Source of the DNA: Desulfomonilia bacterium
GTDB taxonomy: Bacteria; Desulfobacterota; Desulfomonilia; UBA1062
Length of the DNA stretch: 64,000 bases
NCBI GenBank assembly: GCA_963664325.2
Contig: CAXXDQ010000004.1
Coordinates: forward strand, 1-64,000
Direction of reading: 5' to 3'
Shown here: in pieces, positions 17,481 to 48,989 of the stretch
Position numbering within the stretch: position 1 is the first letter of the stretch
Layout: the number at the start of each line of letters is the position of its first letter
Notes under the pieces: generated by a model
Database searches by the model: none
Told to the model about the DNA's origin: nothing
What the model saw: only the letters and a program-made list of their open reading frames with translations
Made by a program: the position numbers and the translations under genes

Positions 17481-17585
17481 GACGTAATATAATTGTTGAA
17501 AAGATAAAATTAAATCCATTTCGTACTGAAATGGAAAAATGATTCTCTGAAATGATGAATTTTATTTATGGTGAAAAATTATTCA

Positions 17586-17614
17586 TTGACAATAAAGTCT
17601 ATATGATTTATGTT
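17586..17614 (+). promoter_or_regulatory. Sigma70-type promoter, copy 1
   Basis: TTGACA-17 bp-TATGTT, also present at 20801-20829. Confidence 0.6.
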
Positions 17615-17718
17615 TGAATCCATATTTGTTCCTCATATTAATTTCGGAGGGGACAAACGATAGAGAGGGAGAGTTGTTTGACCGAAATATTTTAAGCGCG
17701 GGGTGAGAGCTGCGCTTG
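17607..17718 (+). ncRNA. Candidate structured 5' leader RNA, copy 1
   Basis: Identical to 20822-20933; two hairpins and a possible pseudoknot. Confidence 0.45.
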
Positions 17719-17793
17719 AATACATTCGCAGCATTTTTATCCAAGGGTGTGCTGTATTTAAATAACCATTTAGATTATTTTTACGGAGGTAAA

Positions 17794-19041
17794 ATGAGGA
17801 CCGGATTAACAATTCCGCTTGTGCTATTGTGCGCCTTTCTATCGTATGCGCAAAGAGACAATCTCTTCAGTACATATAAAATTCCTACTTATTCATTCTA
17901 TGAACTTCATGTGGCGGGGCAGGATTTCTTGACTTATTTCAGGAATAAAATAGATGAAGATCATAATGATGCTGAAACTGTGACAATAGATTTAGCCCTG
18001 GGAGGCCGTTATTTGAAACAGTCCCCCCTTTATAATGGTGATATTTCAGGTTATCTATCCTATTATTATGATAAGTCAAAGCGAAGTGAAATATCCTCTT
18101 ATTCCGGGATGACGCCTGTTTATGGTGACGTGATTAATGAAAGATCGGTTTCGGATGTTTACCTAAACTCATTTAACGATTTTTATTTGAGAGATGAAAA
18201 GGGGCTATTCCTTTTTGGGGATTTAAAGGGGGCTTATCATTTTTTTACTCCCAGCAAAACAGGATACTCGACTATTGAGTTTTCATCCGGTATCGGCTAT
18301 GGCCGAATTGTAAATTTAAAAAGTGTTGTTCAGGCTTATATCATAGGGCGTGAATCCGGCATTGATTTATCAGAGGAAGCAATTTCGAAACTGACCGAAA
18401 TTATTGAAAAGAGACGTGATGGTTATTATTCGAAAAACAGAGATAATGCGGATATTGAGTTCTACCGGGAGATAGATTCTGTAGTTAAAAAGCCGGAAAT
18501 GACAGCTAAAATTCAGCAGGTCTTTAATTCGGCCTTATATCAAACAGCTGAGAGAAGATCCGGTTTAAAATTTAAATTGGGTTCCCGCTACACCAACGAA
18601 GATGGTGAAAATTCTGATACAAAATATCAAAACCTTGTTGATATAGCTGCCAGTGTTGAATATGCCGCTCCTATCGGATTCGATAAACAATTCTATATAT
18701 CCGTTTCCTATTTAAATAATACAAATAGTCTTAAGGGGAAGGCGCCGATGTTATCAGTTTCCAGTTCTTTTTCAATAGATCACAGTTATACATGGTCTTC
18801 CTCAATAAATGCAAAACTGATCTCGGTATTTCCTGAAAATGAAGCGCAAAGATCAAATTATAGTATTTCTCTTACTTCAAATTATGTTTTGTTGAACGCC
18901 CTTTCGGTTTTTGGATCATTAGAGTATTCAAATACGATTTTTTACAATTGGGGCTCACTTAGTGAAATTGCTGCATATTCTTATCACCCCGAGTATTCAA
19001 AAACGCAGCTGCATCTCGGGGTAAAATATTATATCCTTTAA
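17794..19041 (+). CDS. Putative outer-membrane beta-barrel protein, paralogue A
   Basis: SD GGAGG before ATG 17794, signal peptide, amphipathic strands, GYGRI motif, C-terminal LHLGVKYYIL. Confidence 0.75.
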   Translation: MRTGLTIPLVLLCAFLSYAQRDNLFSTYKIPTYSFYELHVAGQDFLTYFRNKIDEDHNDAETVTIDLALGGRYLKQSPLYNGDISGYLSYYYDKSKRSEISSYSGMTPVYGDVINERSVSDVYLNSFNDFYLRDEKGLFLFGDLKGAYHFFTPSKTGYSTIEFSSGIGYGRIVNLKSVVQAYIIGRESGIDLSEEAISKLTEIIEKRRDGYYSKNRDNADIEFYREIDSVVKKPEMTAKIQQVFNSALYQTAERRSGLKFKLGSRYTNEDGENSDTKYQNLVDIAASVEYAAPIGFDKQFYISVSYLNNTNSLKGKAPMLSVSSSFSIDHSYTWSSSINAKLISVFPENEAQRSNYSISLTSNYVLLNALSVFGSLEYSNTIFYNWGSLSEIAAYSYHPEYSKTQLHLGVKYYIL

Positions 19042-19069
19042 TATTACTTAAATTAGGAATGGAGAATAT

Positions 19070-20320
19070 ATGAAAACGATTTTTTTATTGGCATTTATTA
19101 GCATAATTAATTTCCCTGTTTTTTCACAAAGCACTAAACTGTTTGATGATTATAAAATTCCGACATATTCATTTAATACATTACAATTAGCCAGTCAGGA
19201 TTTTCTGAAATATCTTAAGGTTAAAAGTGACGAAATCCATCAGGATGACGAAAGCATTAATGTTAATTTTAATTTGTACGATAGATTTGTACGCCAATCC
19301 CCATTTTATACCGGAATTTCAGAAGTTAAATTAAATTATTTTTATAATATGGAAAAAAGAAATGAATTTTACTCGAATTATCCAAAAGAATCTACTTATA
19401 AAGAAAGAAAAGATGAGCGGTCTCAGATGTTTTTTTATATTAATTCAATGAATGATTTTTATATAAATAATGAAAGGGGCATTTTCCTATCCGGAAATTT
19501 TTCCTGGAGTTATAATTACTATACACCAATGAAAAATTTTATAACCGAAACAGGAATTACTGTCGGAGGGGGATATGGAAGAATTGTTGGGCTTCGTTCG
19601 GTTGTACAAGCTTATATTATATCTAAAGAGACTGGTTCCAATTTATCAGACTCCGATATACAAAAGCTTTCTGAAATAATAGAAAAATGGAGCAACGGAT
19701 ATTATTCCAAATACAAAGATAATAGTGATATTGAGTTTTATAAGGATATTATTTCAATAACTCAAAAGCCGGAACAGATTACAAAAATCCAGCAAATATT
19801 AAACTCGCAGATTTATAAAACCGCCGAAAGAATGGACGGAATGAAGGTAAATGCAACATTGGGTTACGCAAATATCGGAGGAGATAATTTCTTCTTTTCA
19901 GAAGCAAGAGACCTTGTAAATATAAGTCTAAAAGCCGAGTATGCAAAACCAATCGGTTTCGATAAGCAGGCGTATGTTTCAGCCGAGTATTCAAAAAACC
20001 TTGATGATAAAGAGAATTCAGTCCCAAGATTAAAACTTTCAGGGCGCTTTTCAATTGATCACAACTTAACATGGTCTTCTTCTCTTAATGTTGAATACAC
20101 AACTGCTTATTTAAAAAACACTTCAAACAGGGCTAACTTTAAGGCCGGGTTTTCTACAAATTTCACTATAATTAACGCGTTAACAGCCTACGGTACAGTT
20201 TCATATGTGAAACAGCAATTCCATGATTCTCAAATTTATAATTCTGGTGGTGCCTTGACAATTTCTCCTGAATCCGAATGGACAGAATTACACCTGGGGC
20301 TGAGGTATTACATTTTATAA
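19070..20320 (+). CDS. Putative outer-membrane beta-barrel protein, paralogue B
   Basis: Homologous to A (YKIPTYSF, GYGRIV, LHLGLRYYIL). Confidence 0.78.
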   Translation: MKTIFLLAFISIINFPVFSQSTKLFDDYKIPTYSFNTLQLASQDFLKYLKVKSDEIHQDDESINVNFNLYDRFVRQSPFYTGISEVKLNYFYNMEKRNEFYSNYPKESTYKERKDERSQMFFYINSMNDFYINNERGIFLSGNFSWSYNYYTPMKNFITETGITVGGGYGRIVGLRSVVQAYIISKETGSNLSDSDIQKLSEIIEKWSNGYYSKYKDNSDIEFYKDIISITQKPEQITKIQQILNSQIYKTAERMDGMKVNATLGYANIGGDNFFFSEARDLVNISLKAEYAKPIGFDKQAYVSAEYSKNLDDKENSVPRLKLSGRFSIDHNLTWSSSLNVEYTTAYLKNTSNRANFKAGFSTNFTIINALTAYGTVSYVKQQFHDSQIYNSGGALTISPESEWTELHLGLRYYIL

Positions 20321-20729: not shown

Positions 20730-20821
20730 CTATTCAATTTAGTTTAAGAAGAAATTGCGCTCTGAAATGATTAATTTTCTTTATAGTGAAAAGTTATTCA
20801 TTGACAATAAAATCTATAAGG

Positions 20822-20933
20822 TTTATGTTTGAATCCATATTTGTTCCTCATATTAATTTCGGAGGGGACAAACGATAGAGAGGGAGAGTTGTTTGACCGA
20901 AATATTTTAAGCGCGGGGTGAGAGCTGCGCTTG
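20822..20933 (+). ncRNA. Candidate structured 5' leader RNA, copy 2
   Basis: 112/112 identical to 17607-17718. Confidence 0.45.
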
Positions 20934-21004
20934 GATGACAACACAACATTTATTTATAAAAGGCTTTATTTATTTACACCACTGATTAATTTAAAGGAGC
21001 ATAT

Positions 21005-22261
21005 ATGAAGTACGGATTAATAATCCCTCTTGTAGTTTTTTGCGCTCTAAATTCTTTTGCACAAAGCACCAAATTGTTTTATGATTATAAAATTCCGACT
21101 TATTCATTTCATACTTTGCATTTATCCGGGCAGGATTTTCTGAACTATTTGAAAATTAAAAGCGGCGAACTCCACCAGGATGACGAAAATGTTAACATTA
21201 ATTTTGATTTGTATGATAGATTTGTTCACCAGTCCCCGCTTTATACCGGTGTTACAGAAACTAATTTAAGTTATTCATACAGAATGGAAAAAAGATACGA
21301 GATATTACTAAATGACCCAAGCGGATCATTTGGACAGGAAAAGAAAACCGAAATCTCTCAATCATATTTTGGTATAAACACAATGAATGATTTTTATCTC
21401 GGAGAGGAGAGGGGCTCTTTTATATCGGGCAATTTCGGGTGGAATTATAATTATATCACTCCGAGTAAAAACTTCTATACCGTTACCGGCATTTCGATTG
21501 GGGGCGGATACGGCAGAATTGTCAGGCTGAGAGCTGTAGTTCAGGCATATATTATTTCAAAAGAAACAGGCGCCGATTTATCTGATGGCGATATCCTGAA
21601 ATTAACTGAAATTATTGAAAAATGGAGCAGCGGTTATTATTCAAAATACAGAGATGATAGTGAAATTGAATTTTACAAAGCTATTATCTCAATAACCAAA
21701 AAGCCTGAACAGATTTCAAAAATTCAGCAAATATTAAATTCGCCGGTTTATAAAACCACAGAAAGATTAGACGGTATGAAGGTAAAAGCGCGGCTGTTGG
21801 TTACGCAAATATCGGGGGAGATAATTTTTATTTTTCAGAAGCTAAAGATATGACAAATATTAGTTTGAAGGCCGAATATGCTTTCCCAATAGGGTTTCGC
21901 TCCCAGATATACTTTTCTGCCGAGTATTCTAAAAACCTGAATGATAAAAATAATACTGCACCAAAATTGGCTTTATCTGGCCATTTTTCAATTGATCATA
22001 GCTTTACCTGGTCTTCTTCGCTGTTGAAGTTGCATATGCAGCAGCATATATTAAAAATTCAACGGAAAGATCGAATTTTAAGGCAAGCCTTTCTACAAAC
22101 TGTTCCATAATAAACTCTCTGACAGCATACGGAACTGTTACATATTTTAAACAGCAATTTTATGATTATTCTGTTCCTAATTCAGGTAACGCAATTATAA
22201 AACAACTCCTGATACCGAAAGAACGGAATTACACCTCGGGCTTAAGTATTATATTTTTTAA
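21005..22261 (+). CDS. Putative outer-membrane protein, paralogue C, with three frameshifts (errors or pseudogene)
   Basis: Colinear with B across shifts at about 21790, 22020 and 22200, ending LHLGLKYYIF*. Confidence 0.7.
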
Positions 22262-41334: not shown

Positions 41335-41490
41335 TCATTGCTTCCTTTCAGTTTTGATGATTTCCGATTTATATCATAATTCATTTAATCCATGACAAAG
41401 GAATTTCTAAAATGATATAATTATTATCGATTTGAAGATGTGTTTTTTCAAGTCAGGTTTTTCTTTTCATCACGACAAAGGAGATTCGGT

Positions 41491-43863
41491 ATGCAGGCAC
41501 AAACGTTAAAAAAAGATATGGAAGATACAATAGCCTGTCCGCGCTTTGAACAAATCAGGGAGACTCTTCTTTCCACTCCTGTGAACCTGTGCCCGGAGCG
41601 GGCTCTGCTCGTCACTGAATATTTCAAGAAGCATGACGATAAGAGTGAATCCGTTGTCGTGCGCAGGGCCAGGGTGCTTAAGCATCTGGTCGAAAACAAG
41701 AAGATAATCATACATCCCAAAGAGCTGATAGCAGGCAATATGGGCACCAGCAGGATATCCGCGATCATGCAGCCTGAACTTGCAACCGTATTCATGAGCG
41801 AGGAACTCCTGTGGATAGACAGACGGAAGACAAATCCGTTCAAGATACCGTTTGCAGAGCGCCTTAAAATTTTTTTCAAGGTGAACCCCTACTGGCTGAT
41901 GAGGAATATGGCGTTCAGGGCGTTTTTCCCGAACCTTATTGATATGGCGCGCTATGTGAAGGAGCAGCTCAACGCCACTTACTACCTGATAAACGAAGCA
42001 GGCGGCATTGGGCATTTTCTGCCGAATTACGAAAAGGCCCTGAAACTGGGGCTCAGGGGTTATCTTGAAAGTATGGAAGGAAAGAATGCCGATTTCCACA
42101 AGGCGGCAAGGATAGCATGCGAAGGCCTGTTAATATATGCAGGCAGGGTGGCGGATGAGGCGTCAAGACTTGCGGGTGTTGAACACGATGCCGGGCGGGC
42201 CGCGGAATTGAAAGAGATCGCCCGCATTTGCCGCAAAGTTCCCATGGACCCGCCCGAGACCCTGCACGAGGCGCTGCAGTCCCTGTGGCTCATGCATATG
42301 GCTGTCAATCTTGAAGGACTCAACTCTGCGATATCGTTCGGCCGGATCGACAGATATCTTTACCCGTTCTACAAGACCGATCTCGATGCCGGCAAAATAA
42401 CCCCCGAAAAGGCGAGGGAACTGCTGCTGCTCTTTTCCGCAAAGGCCGTAGAACATGTGATGCTCATATCCGGAAGGACGAGCGAATACCACGGCGGGTA
42501 TCTCGTGGTCCAGGCTGCAATAGTGGGTGGTATGGATGAAGAAGGAAATGATGCGACCAACGAACTCACATATATATTCCTGGACGTCATGGAACAACTT
42601 GGACTCAGGGACCCGAACTATCAGGCCAGGGTTCACAAGGACTGCCCGGAGGCATACCTGAAGCGTGTTGCCGACGTCGCCAGAAAAGGCGGCGGTAACC
42701 CTGCTGTCTTCGGTGACGAGGCGGCCATAGAGGCACTGACATCACACGGCTATCCCCTGAGCGAGGCCAGAAACTATGCTGTTGTCGGCTGCGTGGAACT
42801 GGCGCTGCCGGGAAAAAGCTTCTTTTCGACCGACGCCGGCCTTCTGAACCTGCCTTTATGCCTCGAGCTTGCCCTTAACAGGGGCATAAGGTTCGGGAAG
42901 AAAACCAGGCTGGGCGTTGATACCCCGGACCCGTTGGCAATGACAAGCATGGATCAGGTTTTTGATGCATACCACAGGCAGGTCGATTTTATGGCTGAAA
43001 GGATGGTTAAGGATCTCAGGATAATGGAAAAGGGCAACCGAGACTATCACCCTACGCCTTTCTCGTCCCTGCTCGTTGACGGCTGCATTGAAAAGGGTCT
43101 GGATGTTACTGCGGGCGGCGCTTTCTACAATTCAAGCGGCGTACAGGGTGTGGGGCTTGCCGATGTTGCAGATTCGCTGGCCGCCATCGACGAGGTTGTG
43201 TTCAACCAGAAGAAATATTCGCTGTCTGAGGTCGTTGCTTCAATCAAAGACAATTTCAGGGATGCAGCAGTACTGCGTTCGGAACTTTTGAAGGTTCCCA
43301 AGTTCGGAAACGACAATCCCCTGCCGGACGGCTATGCCGGAAGGGTTGCCCGTATATTCCACGACGCCCTCAACAGGCATGAGAATACTCGCGGAGGCCG
43401 CTACGTTTCCGGGTTTTACTCGGTCACCTGCAACGTCGCATTCGGCAAAAGGACACCGGCTCTGCCCAGCGGGAGGCTTGCCGGCGAGCCGTTCGCTTCA
43501 AGCCTGGGGCCGTCCAACGGCAAAGACCGTCTCGGCCCTACGGCCGTTATGAATTCGGTGGCTAAAGTCGACCCGAAGTTCGCCATGAACGGATATGCCC
43601 TGAATATGAGATTCGACCCGGAAACCCTGTCGGGAGAGAAGGGTGTGAACATCCTTTCATCGCTCGTCAAAGGATTCTTCTCCCAGGGCGGCCTGGAAAT
43701 CCAGCTCAATGTGCTTGATGCGGAAAAGCTCGAAGACGCGAGGCTTAATCCCGGTAAATATCCGGGGCTGGTGGTCAGGGTGGCGGGCTACTGCGCCTAT
43801 TTCGACGACCTGCCCGAAGACAGCAAGCTGGAGATCATCTCCCGTACACGGATGAGAATATAA
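41491..43863 (+). CDS. Glycyl radical enzyme (non-PFL, substrate unknown)
   Basis: SD AAGGAG before ATG 41491, SFGRIDRYLYPFY, single-Cys loop GCVE, C-terminal RVAGY. Confidence 0.92.
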   Translation: MQAQTLKKDMEDTIACPRFEQIRETLLSTPVNLCPERALLVTEYFKKHDDKSESVVVRRARVLKHLVENKKIIIHPKELIAGNMGTSRISAIMQPELATVFMSEELLWIDRRKTNPFKIPFAERLKIFFKVNPYWLMRNMAFRAFFPNLIDMARYVKEQLNATYYLINEAGGIGHFLPNYEKALKLGLRGYLESMEGKNADFHKAARIACEGLLIYAGRVADEASRLAGVEHDAGRAAELKEIARICRKVPMDPPETLHEALQSLWLMHMAVNLEGLNSAISFGRIDRYLYPFYKTDLDAGKITPEKARELLLLFSAKAVEHVMLISGRTSEYHGGYLVVQAAIVGGMDEEGNDATNELTYIFLDVMEQLGLRDPNYQARVHKDCPEAYLKRVADVARKGGGNPAVFGDEAAIEALTSHGYPLSEARNYAVVGCVELALPGKSFFSTDAGLLNLPLCLELALNRGIRFGKKTRLGVDTPDPLAMTSMDQVFDAYHRQVDFMAERMVKDLRIMEKGNRDYHPTPFSSLLVDGCIEKGLDVTAGGAFYNSSGVQGVGLADVADSLAAIDEVVFNQKKYSLSEVVASIKDNFRDAAVLRSELLKVPKFGNDNPLPDGYAGRVARIFHDALNRHENTRGGRYVSGFYSVTCNVAFGKRTPALPSGRLAGEPFASSLGPSNGKDRLGPTAVMNSVAKVDPKFAMNGYALNMRFDPETLSGEKGVNILSSLVKGFFSQGGLEIQLNVLDAEKLEDARLNPGKYPGLVVRVAGYCAYFDDLPEDSKLEIISRTRMRI

Positions 43864-44157
43864 AAACCGGCAATCAAAGATTGAACCTGCAACGATTTGT
43901 GCGCTCGGGCCGGGGAAGCTACTGTTGTTTCGATATTCCTTTTTATCATATAAGGATCGTTACTTAGTAATTTCCAAGCCCTTTGATTTTTAGGAATGTT
44001 TGGGGAATTCTGCTTCAATATTTTCTTTAACCCATCAATTGGCAGGCTAAATAAAACTTATGCATGATCCCCACTAAGGGCTGTGAGTAAAGTAATTCTC
44101 AATAATTGGAGCTTTCTTCTGGAAAAATTGTCTTATGATTGAATCAGGATGGATAGC

Positions 44158-44817
44158 TCATGCGTCAAGATGTATATATTTGAGCGCGTATTCCTTTTCG
44201 CCCTGCGTATAGGTCCGAATGGCCTGGACTACTCTTTCTCCATCACCCGACAAGGCATATTTATATCCTTGGCGAAATAGCTTCGCGTTCTGAACAAGGT
44301 CATTACACCTTAGCCCTGTTATATAATATTCGACACGTCGCTTTGAGGGCCATAGGTCTGTAATCATCCGCTCAAGCAGGGGTATATTGACAAGCCTTAA
44401 CGCTACGGCACCTAAGTCGAAAAGAGCGTTGTAATACCCCTCAACGTTATGTTCCTTGGCACATTGTTCCAATTTTTTTATAGCCTCATCATTCTGACGT
44501 ACAATATCATCATTGATGCATTCGAAAAGCCTGCGCGCCAGCAAAGCATAAAGTTCGGTAAGGATATCGTAAATGCACGCCACATGGTCACGATTTATGG
44601 TGGTAACCCGTACACCGTGTCTGGGCATCAATTCCACAAGGCCTTCCTTTTCGAGCATGCGCAACGCCTCTCGGAGCGGGCTGCGACTAACTCCAAGCTC
44701 ACGCGCCAGCTTGTCTTCAATTATACGCTCACCAGGTTTAAACTCGGTGCGAATGATCTTTTCACTGAGATGCTTGGCAATCTGGTCAGCCAAATTATCG
44801 GATGGTGTAAACGACAT
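44158..44817 (-). CDS. GntR/FCD family transcriptional regulator
   Basis: KPGERI.E..LARELGVSRSPLREALRMLEKEGLV. Confidence 0.92.
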   Translation of the reverse strand: MSFTPSDNLADQIAKHLSEKIIRTEFKPGERIIEDKLARELGVSRSPLREALRMLEKEGLVELMPRHGVRVTTINRDHVACIYDILTELYALLARRLFECINDDIVRQNDEAIKKLEQCAKEHNVEGYYNALFDLGAVALRLVNIPLLERMITDLWPSKRRVEYYITGLRCNDLVQNAKLFRQGYKYALSGDGERVVQAIRTYTQGEKEYALKYIHLDA

Positions 44818-44945
44818 ACCTTTCCTTTTTCAGAGTATGATTACCCTTTTTCTTGTGCACTAATCTGCAGGAAAACACAAGAGGCAGGAAGATACAGCCA
44901 TGAAATGAAAGCAGTTTCACCATATAAAAATATTTTTATTATGTA

Positions 44946-44990
44946 TTGACAAGCATAATTAATTACCTTACTGTTCGATTGTCGACAATC
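44946..44990 (+). promoter_or_regulatory. Promoter with a palindromic GntR-type operator upstream of the ALDH gene
   Basis: TTGACA-17 bp-TACTGT, then GATTGTCGACAATC at 44977-44990. Confidence 0.7.
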
Positions 44991-45025
44991 TACATTTTGA
45001 CAAATATTACCATGGGAGGTTCATT

Positions 45026-46636
45026 ATGCAAATTGAGAATGAATCCATGCAATCGGATATTCGTTCCAGCAGGCCTGTAACGGAATCTGCCGTATCCCAA
45101 AAGAACTTAAAGGTCACCAATCCGGCAACCGGAGCCACTATCGGACAGGTTCCTTCCTTGAGTGTCATCGAGGCTCAGGGTGCCCTTGTCCGGGTCCATG
45201 ACGCTCAGAAAACCTGGAAAGACCGTTCGATAAAAGAACGTTCCGCTGTCATCAGCCGCTTTGCTGAAGTCCTCTATCGCCGGGTGGATGAAGTCGCCGC
45301 CCTTCTCAGCGCAGAAACCGGCAAACCCCTTTATGAAGCCATGCTTTGCGAGGTCCTGCCGATCATGCACCTTGCCGGCTATTATGCGCGAAATGCCGAA
45401 TTGCAGCTCAAAAAGAAACAAATCTCCATCTCATATTTTAAAAACCGCGCCAGTTATATTCACTACAAGCCACGCGGTGTGGTCTTCATCATCTCACCCT
45501 GGAATTTCCCTTTCACCATACCCTGCGGGGCAGTCATCTGCTCTCTCCTGGCTGGCAACGGGGTACTTCTCAAGCCTGCCTCTCTCACGCCTCTGATCGC
45601 CTTTAAAATGCGTGAACTTCTTCTGGAAGCAGGCCTTGACGAGCATATATTCGAAGTAATATCAGGTCCGGGACGCATGGCTTCCGAATTGATTGAAACA
45701 GGTTCGGATCTAATCGACTATGTCAATTTCACAGGATCTACCGAGGTTGGCAGGACTGTTGCACAACTCTGCGGCACGCACCTCATTCCGTGCTCCATGG
45801 AACTGGGCGGAAAAGATCCTGCTATAGTCTGTGCAGATGCCAACCTTGATCTAGCGGCACGCTCTATCACCTTCGGAGCCTTCTGCAATTCCGGACAGAT
45901 TTGCGCTTCGGTGGAGCGCGTCTATGTCCACAGAGACGTATATGATCCCTTTGTACGCAAATTAAAGGAACGCATAAAAGCCCTGCGCCAGGGCGATCCG
46001 GGTCTGGGCGGTTTTTCGATTGACATGGGGTGCATGACTAGCGCCGAACAGATTCAGATACTGGAGCGGCAGGTGGCGGACGCCCGTGCCAAGGGTGCTC
46101 ATATCATCACAGGCGGCAAGCGCTTTAAACCGAATAGCATGTTCTTCGAGCCGACGCTGATTCTTGACGCAAATGAAACCATGGAAGCCGTTTTTGAAGA
46201 AAGCTTCGGACCATTGCTTCCTGTAATGCCTGTTGATGACGACAATGAGGCTATCAGACGTTCCAACGCCAGTATTTACGGCCTGAGCGCCTATGTCTTC
46301 TCCAGGGACAAAGCCAGGGCGCGTCGGATTGCCGAGCAGTTGCAGGCCGGTACGGTTATGATCAATGATACCATCATCACCCATGCCCTGCCCGAGACAC
46401 CGTGGCAGGGGGTCAAACAAAGCGGTATCGGACGCGTCCATACAGAAGAGGCCCTCAGAGATTTATCCATTGCCTACCATGTGAACTATGACACAATACC
46501 GCTTCCCAAACTCTTTTGGCCGATGTGGACCTGGCCGCCGTATTCAAGTTTCAAGGTCAGGCTTTTCAAGCTTCTCTTCGGCTTTATGGGTCTGAACTCA
46601 GGGATCAGGAGAAAAACAAGTCTGTTGTTGCATTAA
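45026..46636 (+). CDS. NAD(P)-dependent aldehyde dehydrogenase
   Basis: ISPWNFP, FTGSTEVG, ELGGKDP, GQICAS, EESFGP. Confidence 0.95.
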   Translation: MQIENESMQSDIRSSRPVTESAVSQKNLKVTNPATGATIGQVPSLSVIEAQGALVRVHDAQKTWKDRSIKERSAVISRFAEVLYRRVDEVAALLSAETGKPLYEAMLCEVLPIMHLAGYYARNAELQLKKKQISISYFKNRASYIHYKPRGVVFIISPWNFPFTIPCGAVICSLLAGNGVLLKPASLTPLIAFKMRELLLEAGLDEHIFEVISGPGRMASELIETGSDLIDYVNFTGSTEVGRTVAQLCGTHLIPCSMELGGKDPAIVCADANLDLAARSITFGAFCNSGQICASVERVYVHRDVYDPFVRKLKERIKALRQGDPGLGGFSIDMGCMTSAEQIQILERQVADARAKGAHIITGGKRFKPNSMFFEPTLILDANETMEAVFEESFGPLLPVMPVDDDNEAIRRSNASIYGLSAYVFSRDKARARRIAEQLQAGTVMINDTIITHALPETPWQGVKQSGIGRVHTEEALRDLSIAYHVNYDTIPLPKLFWPMWTWPPYSSFKVRLFKLLFGFMGLNSGIRRKTSLLLH

Positions 46637-46749
46637 AAAAGCTCATAGCCGACCCTCCGCTGAATCATCATGGGATCGAGTGCAAAGATTGGACTTATCA
46701 TATTTTCTCGATAATTACTGTGCAGGCCTTGTACCAATTCGCCAGGGTA

Positions 46750-46998
46750 ATGGGATTGAAGGCTGAATTTGTGAGACACCCTGGCAGTGCACATCTTCCA
46801 TGGAGCCTTCATCAGTCACGTCAACTCCCTCGGTTACAGCTTAATATAATTTATGCGGAAAAGCTCGAAGACACGAGACTTAATCCCGGGAAATATCCGG
46901 GATTGGCGGTTAGGACTACCGGCTTCAATGTGTATTTCAACGACCTGCCCGAAGACAGTAAGCTGGAGATCATCTCCCGCACACGGTTGAGAGTATAA
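46750..46998 (+). other. Short ORF carrying a duplicate of the GRE glycyl-radical domain (spare part or remnant)
   Basis: 46837-46998 aligns without gaps to 43702-43863; in-frame ATG at 46750. Confidence 0.6.
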
Positions 46999-47294
46999 TT
47001 AAAACTGGGTTGAACTTTTTATTTTTTACACAAAGTTATAATTTCAATTGATTGTCTGAGAGCAATAATCTCCAGTATTTTCAAGTTTTACAAGAAACTC
47101 TTTCGATATAAATCTATTGGGGAGAAATTCCTTCTCGGTAATCAGATTTATCAAAAGCCCCAACGCTCAACAAGCGGCGTATGCCCTTCTGTATTGTGAT
47201 TAAGGAGCAACACGCCTATACAAGTTTATCATGGTTATGTTATATCATGAATATCTAATATATTAATGAATCTGGAATTACAGGGAGGCTTGCA

Positions 47295-48989
47295 ATGGAT
47301 GATATATATTCTGGGAAGCCGTGGCTGAAATTCTATGATCAGGGGATTCCTCACGAAATCGAGTATCCCTGCATTTCCTATGCGGAATTTATCCGGGATG
47401 CCTTTGATAAATTTCCGGACAGGGTAGCGCTGTATTACATGGGAAAAGGCATAAAATACCGGGAGCTGGATATTCTCTCCAATCAATTCGCCCGTTTTCT
47501 TCTGCAGAACGCCTGTCATTCAGGAGATGTGATAGGCGTTCATCTGCCCAATATTCCAGCCTGCTATATATCCTGCCTGGGGATTCAGAAAGCGGGTTGC
47601 GTATATTCGGGCGTCAGCGCTCTTCTCACCCCGGATGAACTTATTCACCAGCTGAATGATTCAGGAGCAAAGATTGTCGTGACACTCGATCTTCTTTTCG
47701 AAACCCTTGCCAAAGCGATAGGCTATACAGGTGTACATACTGTCGTTGTCGCCTCTGTCGCCGATTTTCTTCCGCCAATTAAAAAAATTGTGGGCAAACT
47801 GCTCAAGAAGATCCCTTCAAAAGATACAGAAGATCTGGCAGGTGTCAGGGTGGTTCGATTCAAGGACGGGTTGAAAGACATGAACAAAGATATTCCGGAG
47901 GTGAAGATAGAACCGGACAAACCGAGTTTCATAATGTATACCGGTGGCACGACAGGGCGTCCCAAGGGAGCGGTGTTGACGCACAATAATTTCGTCCGTC
48001 ATCTTGTCCAGATCAATACATGGCTGGGCCTGAGCATGGGGCAGCACACGACCCTATGTCCTTATCCCCTGTTTCATGTTGCGGGCTGTTTCATAGCCAT
48101 GGGCTGCATCGCCCTTGGAAATTCTTTGATTCTAATACCGAACCCGAGAGACCTCATGTTCATGGTATCCGCCATAAAGAAACACAGGCCCACTTCCGTA
48201 CTGGCAGTGCCTACACTCTATCTCGCATTGATGAAACTGCCGGGATTCCGGGCGCTTGATTTTTCGGGCATCCAGTATTTCCTCAGTGGATCAGCCCCTT
48301 TTCCTCAGGAAAACCTCAGGGAATTTGAGGAACTCGTCAAAGGGAGGCTCATAGAAACCTACGGGCTGACAGAGTCGGTCAGCGTCGTGGCGGCGCCCCC
48401 ATATAATGGCGTCAAGAAAACGGGTTCCGTGGGGATACCCATTATGGATACCGAGGTCAAGATTGTCGATCCCGAGACGGGAGATCCGGTTCCGGCGGGA
48501 GAGCCGGGAGAGATTATTGTAAAGGGTCCGCAGGTTTTCGCGGGGTACTACAACCAGCCCGAGGAGACGGCGTATGCAGTCAGGAATGGATGGCTCCATA
48601 CAGGGGACATTGCGAGAATGGATGATGACGGATACTTTTATATAGTGGACAGGCTCAAGGACATGGTAAATGTTTCCGGATTCAAGGTGTTCACGCGTGT
48701 GGTCGACGAGGTACTGGTCGAACATCCCGATGTGGAGATGGGGGCTACAATAGGCTTGCCTGACCCGAACAGGCCGGGTTCGGAAATCGTCGCTGCCGCG
48801 GTCGTACTCAAAACCGGCCGGCAGAAGAATGAAGATATGAAAAGGGAGATCACGGCGCACATGGAGAAGAAACTTTCGGCATACAAGATTCCCAAGCTGA
48901 TTGAGTTTATGGACCAGCTTCCATTGAGTCCGGTGGGCAAGGTCCTGAAGCGCGATCTGCGGAAGATCATGGAAAGCAGACCGGACTGA
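47295..48989 (+). CDS. Long-chain-fatty-acid/acyl-CoA ligase (FadD-like)
   Basis: YTGGTTGRPKG, YGLTE, WLHTGDI, DRLKDM, VGKVLK. Confidence 0.93.
   Translation: MDDIYSGKPWLKFYDQGIPHEIEYPCISYAEFIRDAFDKFPDRVALYYMGKGIKYRELDILSNQFARFLLQNACHSGDVIGVHLPNIPACYISCLGIQKAGCVYSGVSALLTPDELIHQLNDSGAKIVVTLDLLFETLAKAIGYTGVHTVVVASVADFLPPIKKIVGKLLKKIPSKDTEDLAGVRVVRFKDGLKDMNKDIPEVKIEPDKPSFIMYTGGTTGRPKGAVLTHNNFVRHLVQINTWLGLSMGQHTTLCPYPLFHVAGCFIAMGCIALGNSLILIPNPRDLMFMVSAIKKHRPTSVLAVPTLYLALMKLPGFRALDFSGIQYFLSGSAPFPQENLREFEELVKGRLIETYGLTESVSVVAAPPYNGVKKTGSVGIPIMDTEVKIVDPETGDPVPAGEPGEIIVKGPQVFAGYYNQPEETAYAVRNGWLHTGDIARMDDDGYFYIVDRLKDMVNVSGFKVFTRVVDEVLVEHPDVEMGATIGLPDPNRPGSEIVAAAVVLKTGRQKNEDMKREITAHMEKKLSAYKIPKLIEFMDQLPLSPVGKVLKRDLRKIMESRPD

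Follow-up and report, generated by a model that had tools for sequence, protein, structure and literature searches.

The 162-nt segment at positions 46837-46998 (plus strand) of the window, i.e., the whole 64,000-nt stretch of Desulfomonilia DNA analyzed here, is very probably (rough probability 0.88) a decaying relic of the 3' end of a glycyl radical enzyme (GRE) gene, left by the insertion of a relocated block that carries a gntR gene and an aldehyde dehydrogenase (ALDH) gene. The preliminary description of the region had put forward, as its headline, a GrcA-like spare-part protein for a non-PFL GRE, encoded by an 82-codon ORF that includes this segment (46750-46998, plus strand), and had named as its alternative an old 3' end displaced by integration of the gntR-ALDH block. 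It is the alternative that is supported, by empty sites in relatives, by the occurrence of the block elsewhere and by the relic of a neighbor gene at its edge.

The GRE gene is intact and is located at 41491-43863 on the plus strand. Its product matches the Pfam PFL-like (E = 8.9e-175) and Gly_radical domains, scores 642 bits against TIGR01774 (below the cut-off of 678) and has 2f3o as its closest PDB match. By sequence, the enzyme is a GRE of the PFL2/glycerol-dehydratase type and not PFL proper. The reading frame is open from 41440, and the likely start is ATG 41491. No ribosome-binding site precedes the listed GTG start at 41440 (-1.0 kcal/mol, as compared with -8.7 kcal/mol at ATG 41491), and ATG 41491 fits the ortholog alignments, giving a GRE of 790 aa. 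About eight GRE-like loci are present in this genome (G000). Activase genes adjoin four of the other loci, and none adjoins the GRE of the window. The GRE stop is followed by a left junction spacer of 294 nt that extends to the stop of gntR (43864-44157) and has no match in the relatives or elsewhere in the genome. Next are the gene of a GntR/FCD-family regulator (44158-44817, minus strand; Pfam GntR and FCD; 81% identity to the copies in G001 and G002) and an intact gene for an ALDH of 536 aa (45026-46636, plus strand; Pfam Aldedh), both part of the translocated block. Downstream of the orphan segment, an acyl-CoA ligase gene (47295-48989, plus strand) is the first of a cluster that continues with two HGD-D subunits; this cluster is not found behind the GRE in the congeners.

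In pairwise comparison, the orphan copies the last 53 codons and the stop of the GRE gene (43702-43863, plus strand) as an ungapped direct repeat of 162 nt with 28 mismatches (82.7% identity). Eight codon changes between the two tails are synonymous and 13 are non-synonymous. The TAA stop is at the same position and the radical-Gly codon GGC is kept in both copies; eleven of the mismatches fall in the codons around this Gly, changing RVAGYCAYF to RTTGFNVYF. The recount of these features agreed with the preliminary description throughout: the ungapped match with its mismatches and synonymous changes, the place of the stop, the retained Gly codon and the cluster of changes around it. No similarity was detected beyond either end of the repeat, where blocks of 30 nt up- and downstream contain 4-13 matches. 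A blastn search of the orphan against the whole 4.3-Mb genome gave E = 2.8e-42 to the GRE tail and no second match of that size, and the repeat search ranked the pair as the top direct repeat (family D1). The match is far beyond chance. The DNA between the two copies measures 2973 nt and carries gntR and ALDH. The orphan frame contains neither a stop nor an indel within the 162 nt, and the whole of the enzyme before the QLNV strand is missing.

The ALDH gene and gntR are found as a divergent pair at a locus unrelated to this GRE in G001, G002, G014 and G008. The ALDH orthologs are full-length (1-536), with identities of 80% in G001, 81% in G002 and 75% in G014, so the C-terminus of the ALDH in the window is genuine. 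In the same three genomes ALDH is convergent with a formate-dehydrogenase-like (molybdopterin-oxidoreductase) gene. Nucleotide homology to the G014 locus extends about 100 nt past the ALDH stop, to 46733. On the minus strand, tblastn placed the decayed remains of the final 34 codons of the molybdopterin-oxidoreductase gene at 46701-46802. Identity to G014 is 53% over 34 aa (E = 9.5e-8), and over 25 aa it is 64% to G001 and 56% to G002; the stop coincides with that of the neighbor gene in the relatives. With this relic as its right edge, the inserted block is read as gntR and ALDH together with a truncated piece of the neighbor gene's 3' end. The gap from the relic to the orphan GRE tail is at most 35 nt. 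Two truncated gene ends that abut in this manner have the appearance of an illegitimate junction. A search of the left spacer for remains of the genes found past gntR in G001 and G002 gave nothing credible.

A total of 61 genomes, including G000, were searched for relatives. The three congeners G001, G002 and G003 contain an orthologous GRE of 79-81% identity behind PHP, APH-like and RlmN genes. The genes for GntR, ALDH, acyl-CoA ligase and HGD are absent downstream of the orthologous GRE in all three, and the GRE is followed there by asnS, pgpA, cinA, ligT, recA, pilT and alaS. In G000, the asnS-to-alaS run is located on another contig (C3:42311-51212). G001 and G003 have the same upstream synteny and one GRE end only. 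The preliminary description had asked whether relatives lacking gntR-ALDH have a single tail, and had stated that an empty site with a single GRE end would speak against its spare-part headline; G001 and G003 have just such a site, with a single tail. The first 50 nt past the GRE stops of these two genomes are homologous to each other (z = 8.8, 0/500 shuffles). The same type of comparison gave z = 1.96 (29/500 shuffles) for the flank of the G000 orphan against G001, and z = 1.97 (31/500) for the flank of the G000 GRE against G003. A first reading of the alignment, by which the G000 orphan keeps the ancestral downstream flank, was dropped on the shuffle result of z = 1.96 and 29/500.

The two copies of the tail have evolved in different ways. 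With the GRE tails of G001, G002, G003, G022 and G014 as outgroups, 23 of the 28 differences were assigned to the orphan branch, two to the GRE branch and three remained ambiguous (binomial p = 1.9e-5). The changes on the orphan branch are distributed 9:5:9 over the codon positions, for which uniformity is not rejected (p = 0.50), as compared with 20:6:104 in six pooled pairs of functional orthologous tails (chi-square p = 1.1e-4 vs the orphan). The orphan has a maximum likelihood (ML) branch length of 0.215 and the GRE copy one of 0.018, i.e., about a 12-fold rate. Nei-Gojobori dN/dS is 0.32 between GRE tail and orphan and 0.04-0.08 among orthologous tails, with values of 0.05-0.06 for the functional copy against the orthologous tails. 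This comparison, suggested in the preliminary description, points to relaxed constraint on the orphan. Constraint on the orphan of the kind seen in orthologs is rejected (p about 1e-5 to 1e-6). Six of the 13 replacements were never seen at their position in 28 other GRE tails (eight from G000 and 20 from relatives). Two of these six are next to the radical Gly: in V27T, V is present in 27/28 tails and T in 0/28, and in A32V, A is present in 28/28 and V in 0/28. Strict neutrality is only marginally disfavored: non-synonymous changes make up 13-14 of the 23 on the orphan branch, slightly below the neutral expectation of 77% (one-sided p = 0.03-0.07), a point in favor of a translated product.

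The divergence of the orphan is patchy. Codons 1-5 and 21-34 contain 19 differences in 57 nt, as compared with 9 in 102 nt elsewhere; around the Gly codon 11 of 15 nt are changed (P = 2.8e-6 under uniform decay). Divergence at third positions is 4/34 in the quiet stretches and 8/19 in the diverged stretches (Fisher p = 0.017, with the partition chosen post hoc). Given that post hoc partition, the pattern is possibly better explained by partial conversion from the functional copy than by selection at the protein level. Conversion of the Gly-loop patch from another GRE paralog of G000 was considered and is not supported: the paralogs match the patch at 21-28 of 45 nt, and the adjacent GRE matches it at 29 of 45.

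The spare-part reading of the preliminary description can be spelled out more widely: the orphan would be translated, for example from ATG 46750 or by read-through behind ALDH, into a small protein with beta-strand, Gly loop and C-terminal helix. Once given its radical by an activase, the protein would stand in for the O2-cleaved end of the GRE in the manner of GrcA/YfiD, or it would serve as a decoy or regulator of the enzyme. That this is so is considered very unlikely, and equally slight is the prospect that the orphan would represent the first spare-part or decoy glycyl-radical module of a non-PFL (PFL2/dehydratase-type) GRE, with an altered Gly loop. Several features are in line with the proposal. 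Frame and stop are intact and the radical-Gly codon is kept; homology starts exactly at the QLNV strand, so that a minimal strand-loop-helix unit is present; and the stretches AEKLEDxRLNPGKYPGL and DLPEDSKLEIISRTR are almost unaltered. Short forms of 78-80 aa exist among the NCBIfam families GrcA2 (NF008341) and GrcA3 (NF038360). Furthermore, according to the accessible text of a 2026 review, spare-part proteins are known for formate lyases (PFL) only, and their existence for other GREs is yet to be determined (PMC13450708).

The translation signals speak against it. ATG 46750 does open an 82-codon ORF, as had been described, within a stop-to-stop frame of 46492-46998. Codons 1-18 are antisense to the dehydrogenase relic, in which the ATG itself is located, codons 19-29 are junction DNA and only codons 30-82 are orphan tail. 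The frame upstream of the tail is open on the plus strand because it runs antisense through the relic, and the ORF is judged to be a chimeric accident. The duplex with the anti-SD sequence at ATG 46750 is -3.9 kcal/mol, in agreement with the earlier remark that a strong SD is missing; random 20-mers of the window have a mean of -2.4 and a 10th percentile of -5.9 kcal/mol. Candidate starts in the orphan frame range from +1.9 to -4.6 kcal/mol, as compared with -8.7 to -11.1 kcal/mol for ALDH, acyl-CoA ligase and ATG 41491 of the GRE. Thus, no ribosome-binding site beyond random background was detected at the starts of the orphan ORF. A scan of 43700-47400 for promoters and terminators gave counts at or below the expectation from shuffled sequence.

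The protein families give a similar picture. The 82-aa ORF scores 22.7 bits against Pfam Gly_radical (PF01228; gathering threshold 22.2) and covers only positions 70-106 of 106, whereas the intact GRE scores 95.5 bits over positions 2-105. Against the GrcA models TIGR04365, NF008341 and NF038360 the ORF reaches 36.7, 33.6 and 34.8 bits, about a fifth of the cut-offs of 170, 145 and 158, and is outscored by the GRE's own tail (39.6, 40.6 and 50.1 bits). The strongest changes are in the Gly loop, which would have to match the active site and activase of the GRE, and they include residues unseen in the 28 tails; the GRE has no activase next to it. A search of 5.8 billion proteins for matches of near length returned three, all of them canonical GRE ends with an RVAGYCAYF-type loop on contigs of 1.5-2.9 kb, i.e., GRE ends at contig edges; the 82-codon ORF itself was not among the called proteins of that collection. 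A metagenome scan with the 82-aa ORF gave two loci: a contig edge carrying a normal GRE end, and a spurious match. As an ORF, it is absent from G001-G003, from 80 ortholog loci and from the metagenome scan. The preliminary description had called for a search for short Gly_radical-only ORFs near this GRE clade. No related ORF was found in these searches; 2/80 loci contain orphans (G002 and L061, see below), which are shorter and startless. With no ribosome-binding site, an antisense N-terminus, an altered Gly loop, low GrcA scores and no counterpart in the congeners, the spare-part headline is not supported.

The orphan ORF resembles GrcA/YfiD in that it is short, ends with strand, Gly-loop and helix, keeps the Gly, and shares homology with the C-terminus of a GRE from its own genome. 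Residues 61-127 of YfiD share the fold of PFL residues 693-759, and the disordered residues 1-60 are conserved and needed for binding and activation, as far as the available text of the study states (PMC8683613). The orphan differs in its scores of 34-37 bits against cut-offs of 145-170, in a Gly loop that is not matched to the partner enzyme, in the absence of translation signals and in the lack of conservation in relatives; where YfiD has its conserved disordered region, the orphan ORF has an N-terminus antisense to a gene relic. By sequence comparison, the likeness to the structured part of GrcA appears to be due only to descent from a GRE tail.

A family of stand-alone Gly_radical proteins of about 150-180 aa, suggested by an ORF in G013, was also considered and rejected. 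The search gave 75 short matches, mostly on contigs of 0.5-3 kb; ten that were aligned have heterogeneous N-termini, and the matches look mostly like fragments. The ORF in question, at 7715-8254 of L042 (G013 contig C44), has 179 aa and a complete Gly_radical domain (Pfam 1-106 of 106, 93.6 bits), with no GRE body nearby and 49% identity to residues 636-805 of the window GRE. A 149-aa protein on another contig is 82% identical to it and has the same called start. The L042 ORF may be a GRE cut short or, alternatively, a more promising spare-part candidate than the 82-codon ORF.

It is also improbable, to the same high degree as translation of the orphan, that the tail is the remnant of a second full-length tandem copy of the GRE gene, deleted down to its last 53 codons. 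Genomes of the family contain 7-8 GRE paralogs, several of them paired about 4.4 kb apart, broken GREs are common (a copy on contig C3 of G000, frameshifted orthologs in G031 and G012), and the origin of the DNA at the left and right junctions is traced only in part, all of which would suit such a remnant. Against this, the orphan protein is 75% identical to the adjacent GRE and at most 49% identical to every other paralog in G000. In the ML tree each orphan is placed beside the GRE of its own genome, with weak bootstraps of 66 (G000) and 56, within a genus clade supported at 95. A second copy of this GRE is not found downstream in any congener. In addition, the homology begins within about 35 nt of the end of another truncated gene, as would be expected for one junction, and the comparable cases in G002 and L061 are simple direct repeats that enclose small inserts.

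An artefact of assembly or binning that joined the DNA of two related strains is next to impossible: the genome is in nine contigs and all close relatives are metagenome-assembled, but the copies, with only 83% identity between them, are 3.1 kb from each other in a single 928-kb contig, comparable orphans occur in two other assemblies, and an independently built contig set, whose run may be the source data, carries the 4-kb stretch whole and identical. In one DNA run from another sample, of which about 4% was scanned, no read mapped to the stretch.

Orphan gene ends of this type were found at other places. In G002, an orphan GRE tail of 105-117 nt is located behind a 1.3-kb insert with an OmpA-family gene, with a 105-nt repeat at 90% identity. 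Its homology begins only at NPGKYPGL; an in-frame TAA is present 22 codons upstream, and no ATG, GTG or TTG is found between this stop and the motif. The downstream flank of the G002 orphan is ancestral (z = 6.9-7.6 vs G001 and G003, 0/500 shuffles). In a survey of orthologs in a collection of species-representative genomes, the tail was present in 80/80 loci (at least 1.5 kb of downstream DNA in 67, at least 3.5 kb in 51) and two tails were present in 4/80. Two of these four have second full-length paralogs, and two have orphans, namely the G002 contig and L061, a locus of a MAG labelled Smithella. The repeat in L061 (7360-7544 and 8765-8949; 185 nt, 94% identity) consists of about 100 nt of GRE end and about 85 nt of flank, and brackets a gene with a BsuPI domain (289 aa); the orphan tail is shorter than that of G000 and has no start codon. 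The GRE-tail orphans of G000, G002 and L061 differ in cut points and cargo and are regarded as independent.

Two further genes in G000 show the same arrangement, across inserts of 2-4 kb. On contig C7, a 423-nt direct repeat of 95.7% identity (870107-870529 and 874156-874578; L129) comprises the 3' end of a sulfatase-HEAT gene and its flank, repeated across a 3.6-kb block that encodes a permease and a Cache-domain protein; the orphan copy remains open as a HEAT ORF of 128 aa, with 4/103 residues changed. On contig C3, a 156-nt direct repeat of 81% identity (579307-579462 and 581390-581545; L130) duplicates the 3' end of a 621-aa gene on the far side of the gene that follows it (572 aa), and the orphan has an in-frame stop. 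Because of these parallels, at the GRE and at two other genes of G000, orphan gene ends are regarded as a recurrent and unselective by-product in these genomes. Insertion may repeatedly target the 3' end of the GRE, and those of other genes, in these Smithella-like genomes, with repeats of 100-420 nt, small cargo and no recognizable recombinase. This reading is weaker in novelty but likelier than that of a translated spare part.

Islands that integrate into gene ends leave partial duplications of the 3' end similar to attL/attR, and homology-facilitated illegitimate recombination is also known. The GRE tails resemble these systems in the direct repeat on both sides of relocated DNA, with the proximal gene whole and the distal copy an orphan, in the empty sites of relatives, and in that the same gene is affected in other species with different cargo. 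They differ in that neither integrase or transposase domains nor convincing terminal inverted repeats were found in or beside the inserts of G000, G002 and L061. The GRE-tail repeats are also long (105-185 nt), with a different starting point in each of the three, and the G000 cargo is a piece of an ordinary chromosomal locus, bordered by a truncated gene.

For the decaying relic in G000, the following course is proposed. A block comprising gntR, ALDH and the last 34 or so codons of the convergent formate-dehydrogenase-like gene would have been cut from a locus like that of the relatives and joined into the last 162 nt of the GRE gene, we infer by illegitimate or homology-assisted recombination. 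The GRE would have survived because those 162 nt came to lie on both sides of the insert. The copy joined to the body of the GRE would have stayed under strong purifying selection, and the orphan on the far side would drift, perhaps with some stretches converted by the functional copy, which lies 3 kb away. The 82-codon ORF would then be an accidentally open frame, presumably not translated, that crosses the dehydrogenase relic in antisense before entering the orphan tail.

Further observations were made on GREs and repeats in these genomes. In G000, an ORF of 1113 aa (C7:866088-869429; L129 589-3930) fuses an N-terminal radical-SAM activase module to a complete GRE, with the domains Radical_SAM and Fer4_12 (matching TIGR02494) followed by PFL-like and Gly_radical; frames of 1117-1139 aa with the same tail are present in several relatives. 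A frameshifted GRE copy is located at C3:415711-416065 of G000, orthologs of the window GRE are split by a frameshift in G031 (L045) and G012 (L046), and a multiply frameshifted GRE is present in G031 (L041). The broken GREs indicate either common GRE decay in the family or assembly errors. Within the window, an intergenic direct repeat of 181 nt and 95% identity (17545-17724 and 20760-20940), with a promoter-like start of TTGACA type and a G-rich leader, lies just 5' of two gene groups on the plus strand (17716-20320 and 21005-22110). The proteins of these groups have no Pfam match and the repeat has no Rfam match; the repeat may be a shared regulatory leader. In G002, a 34-nt inverted repeat of CACGAAG-like units was found at 7999-8158 of L031, and an ORF-like stretch beside it matches dozens of sites in G000. 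This element is probably a small dispersed repeat near the rearranged region.

A spare part for a non-PFL GRE would, if true, answer a question that the field calls open, as the review is worded in its accessible text (PMC13450708). The locus at 46750-46998 is not to be annotated or pursued as a GrcA-like gene. Where a short Gly_radical match is found beside a GRE, relatives should be checked for an empty site before a gene is called. Orphan 3' ends around small inserts recur in this group of genomes, affecting this GRE in three species and two other genes in G000.
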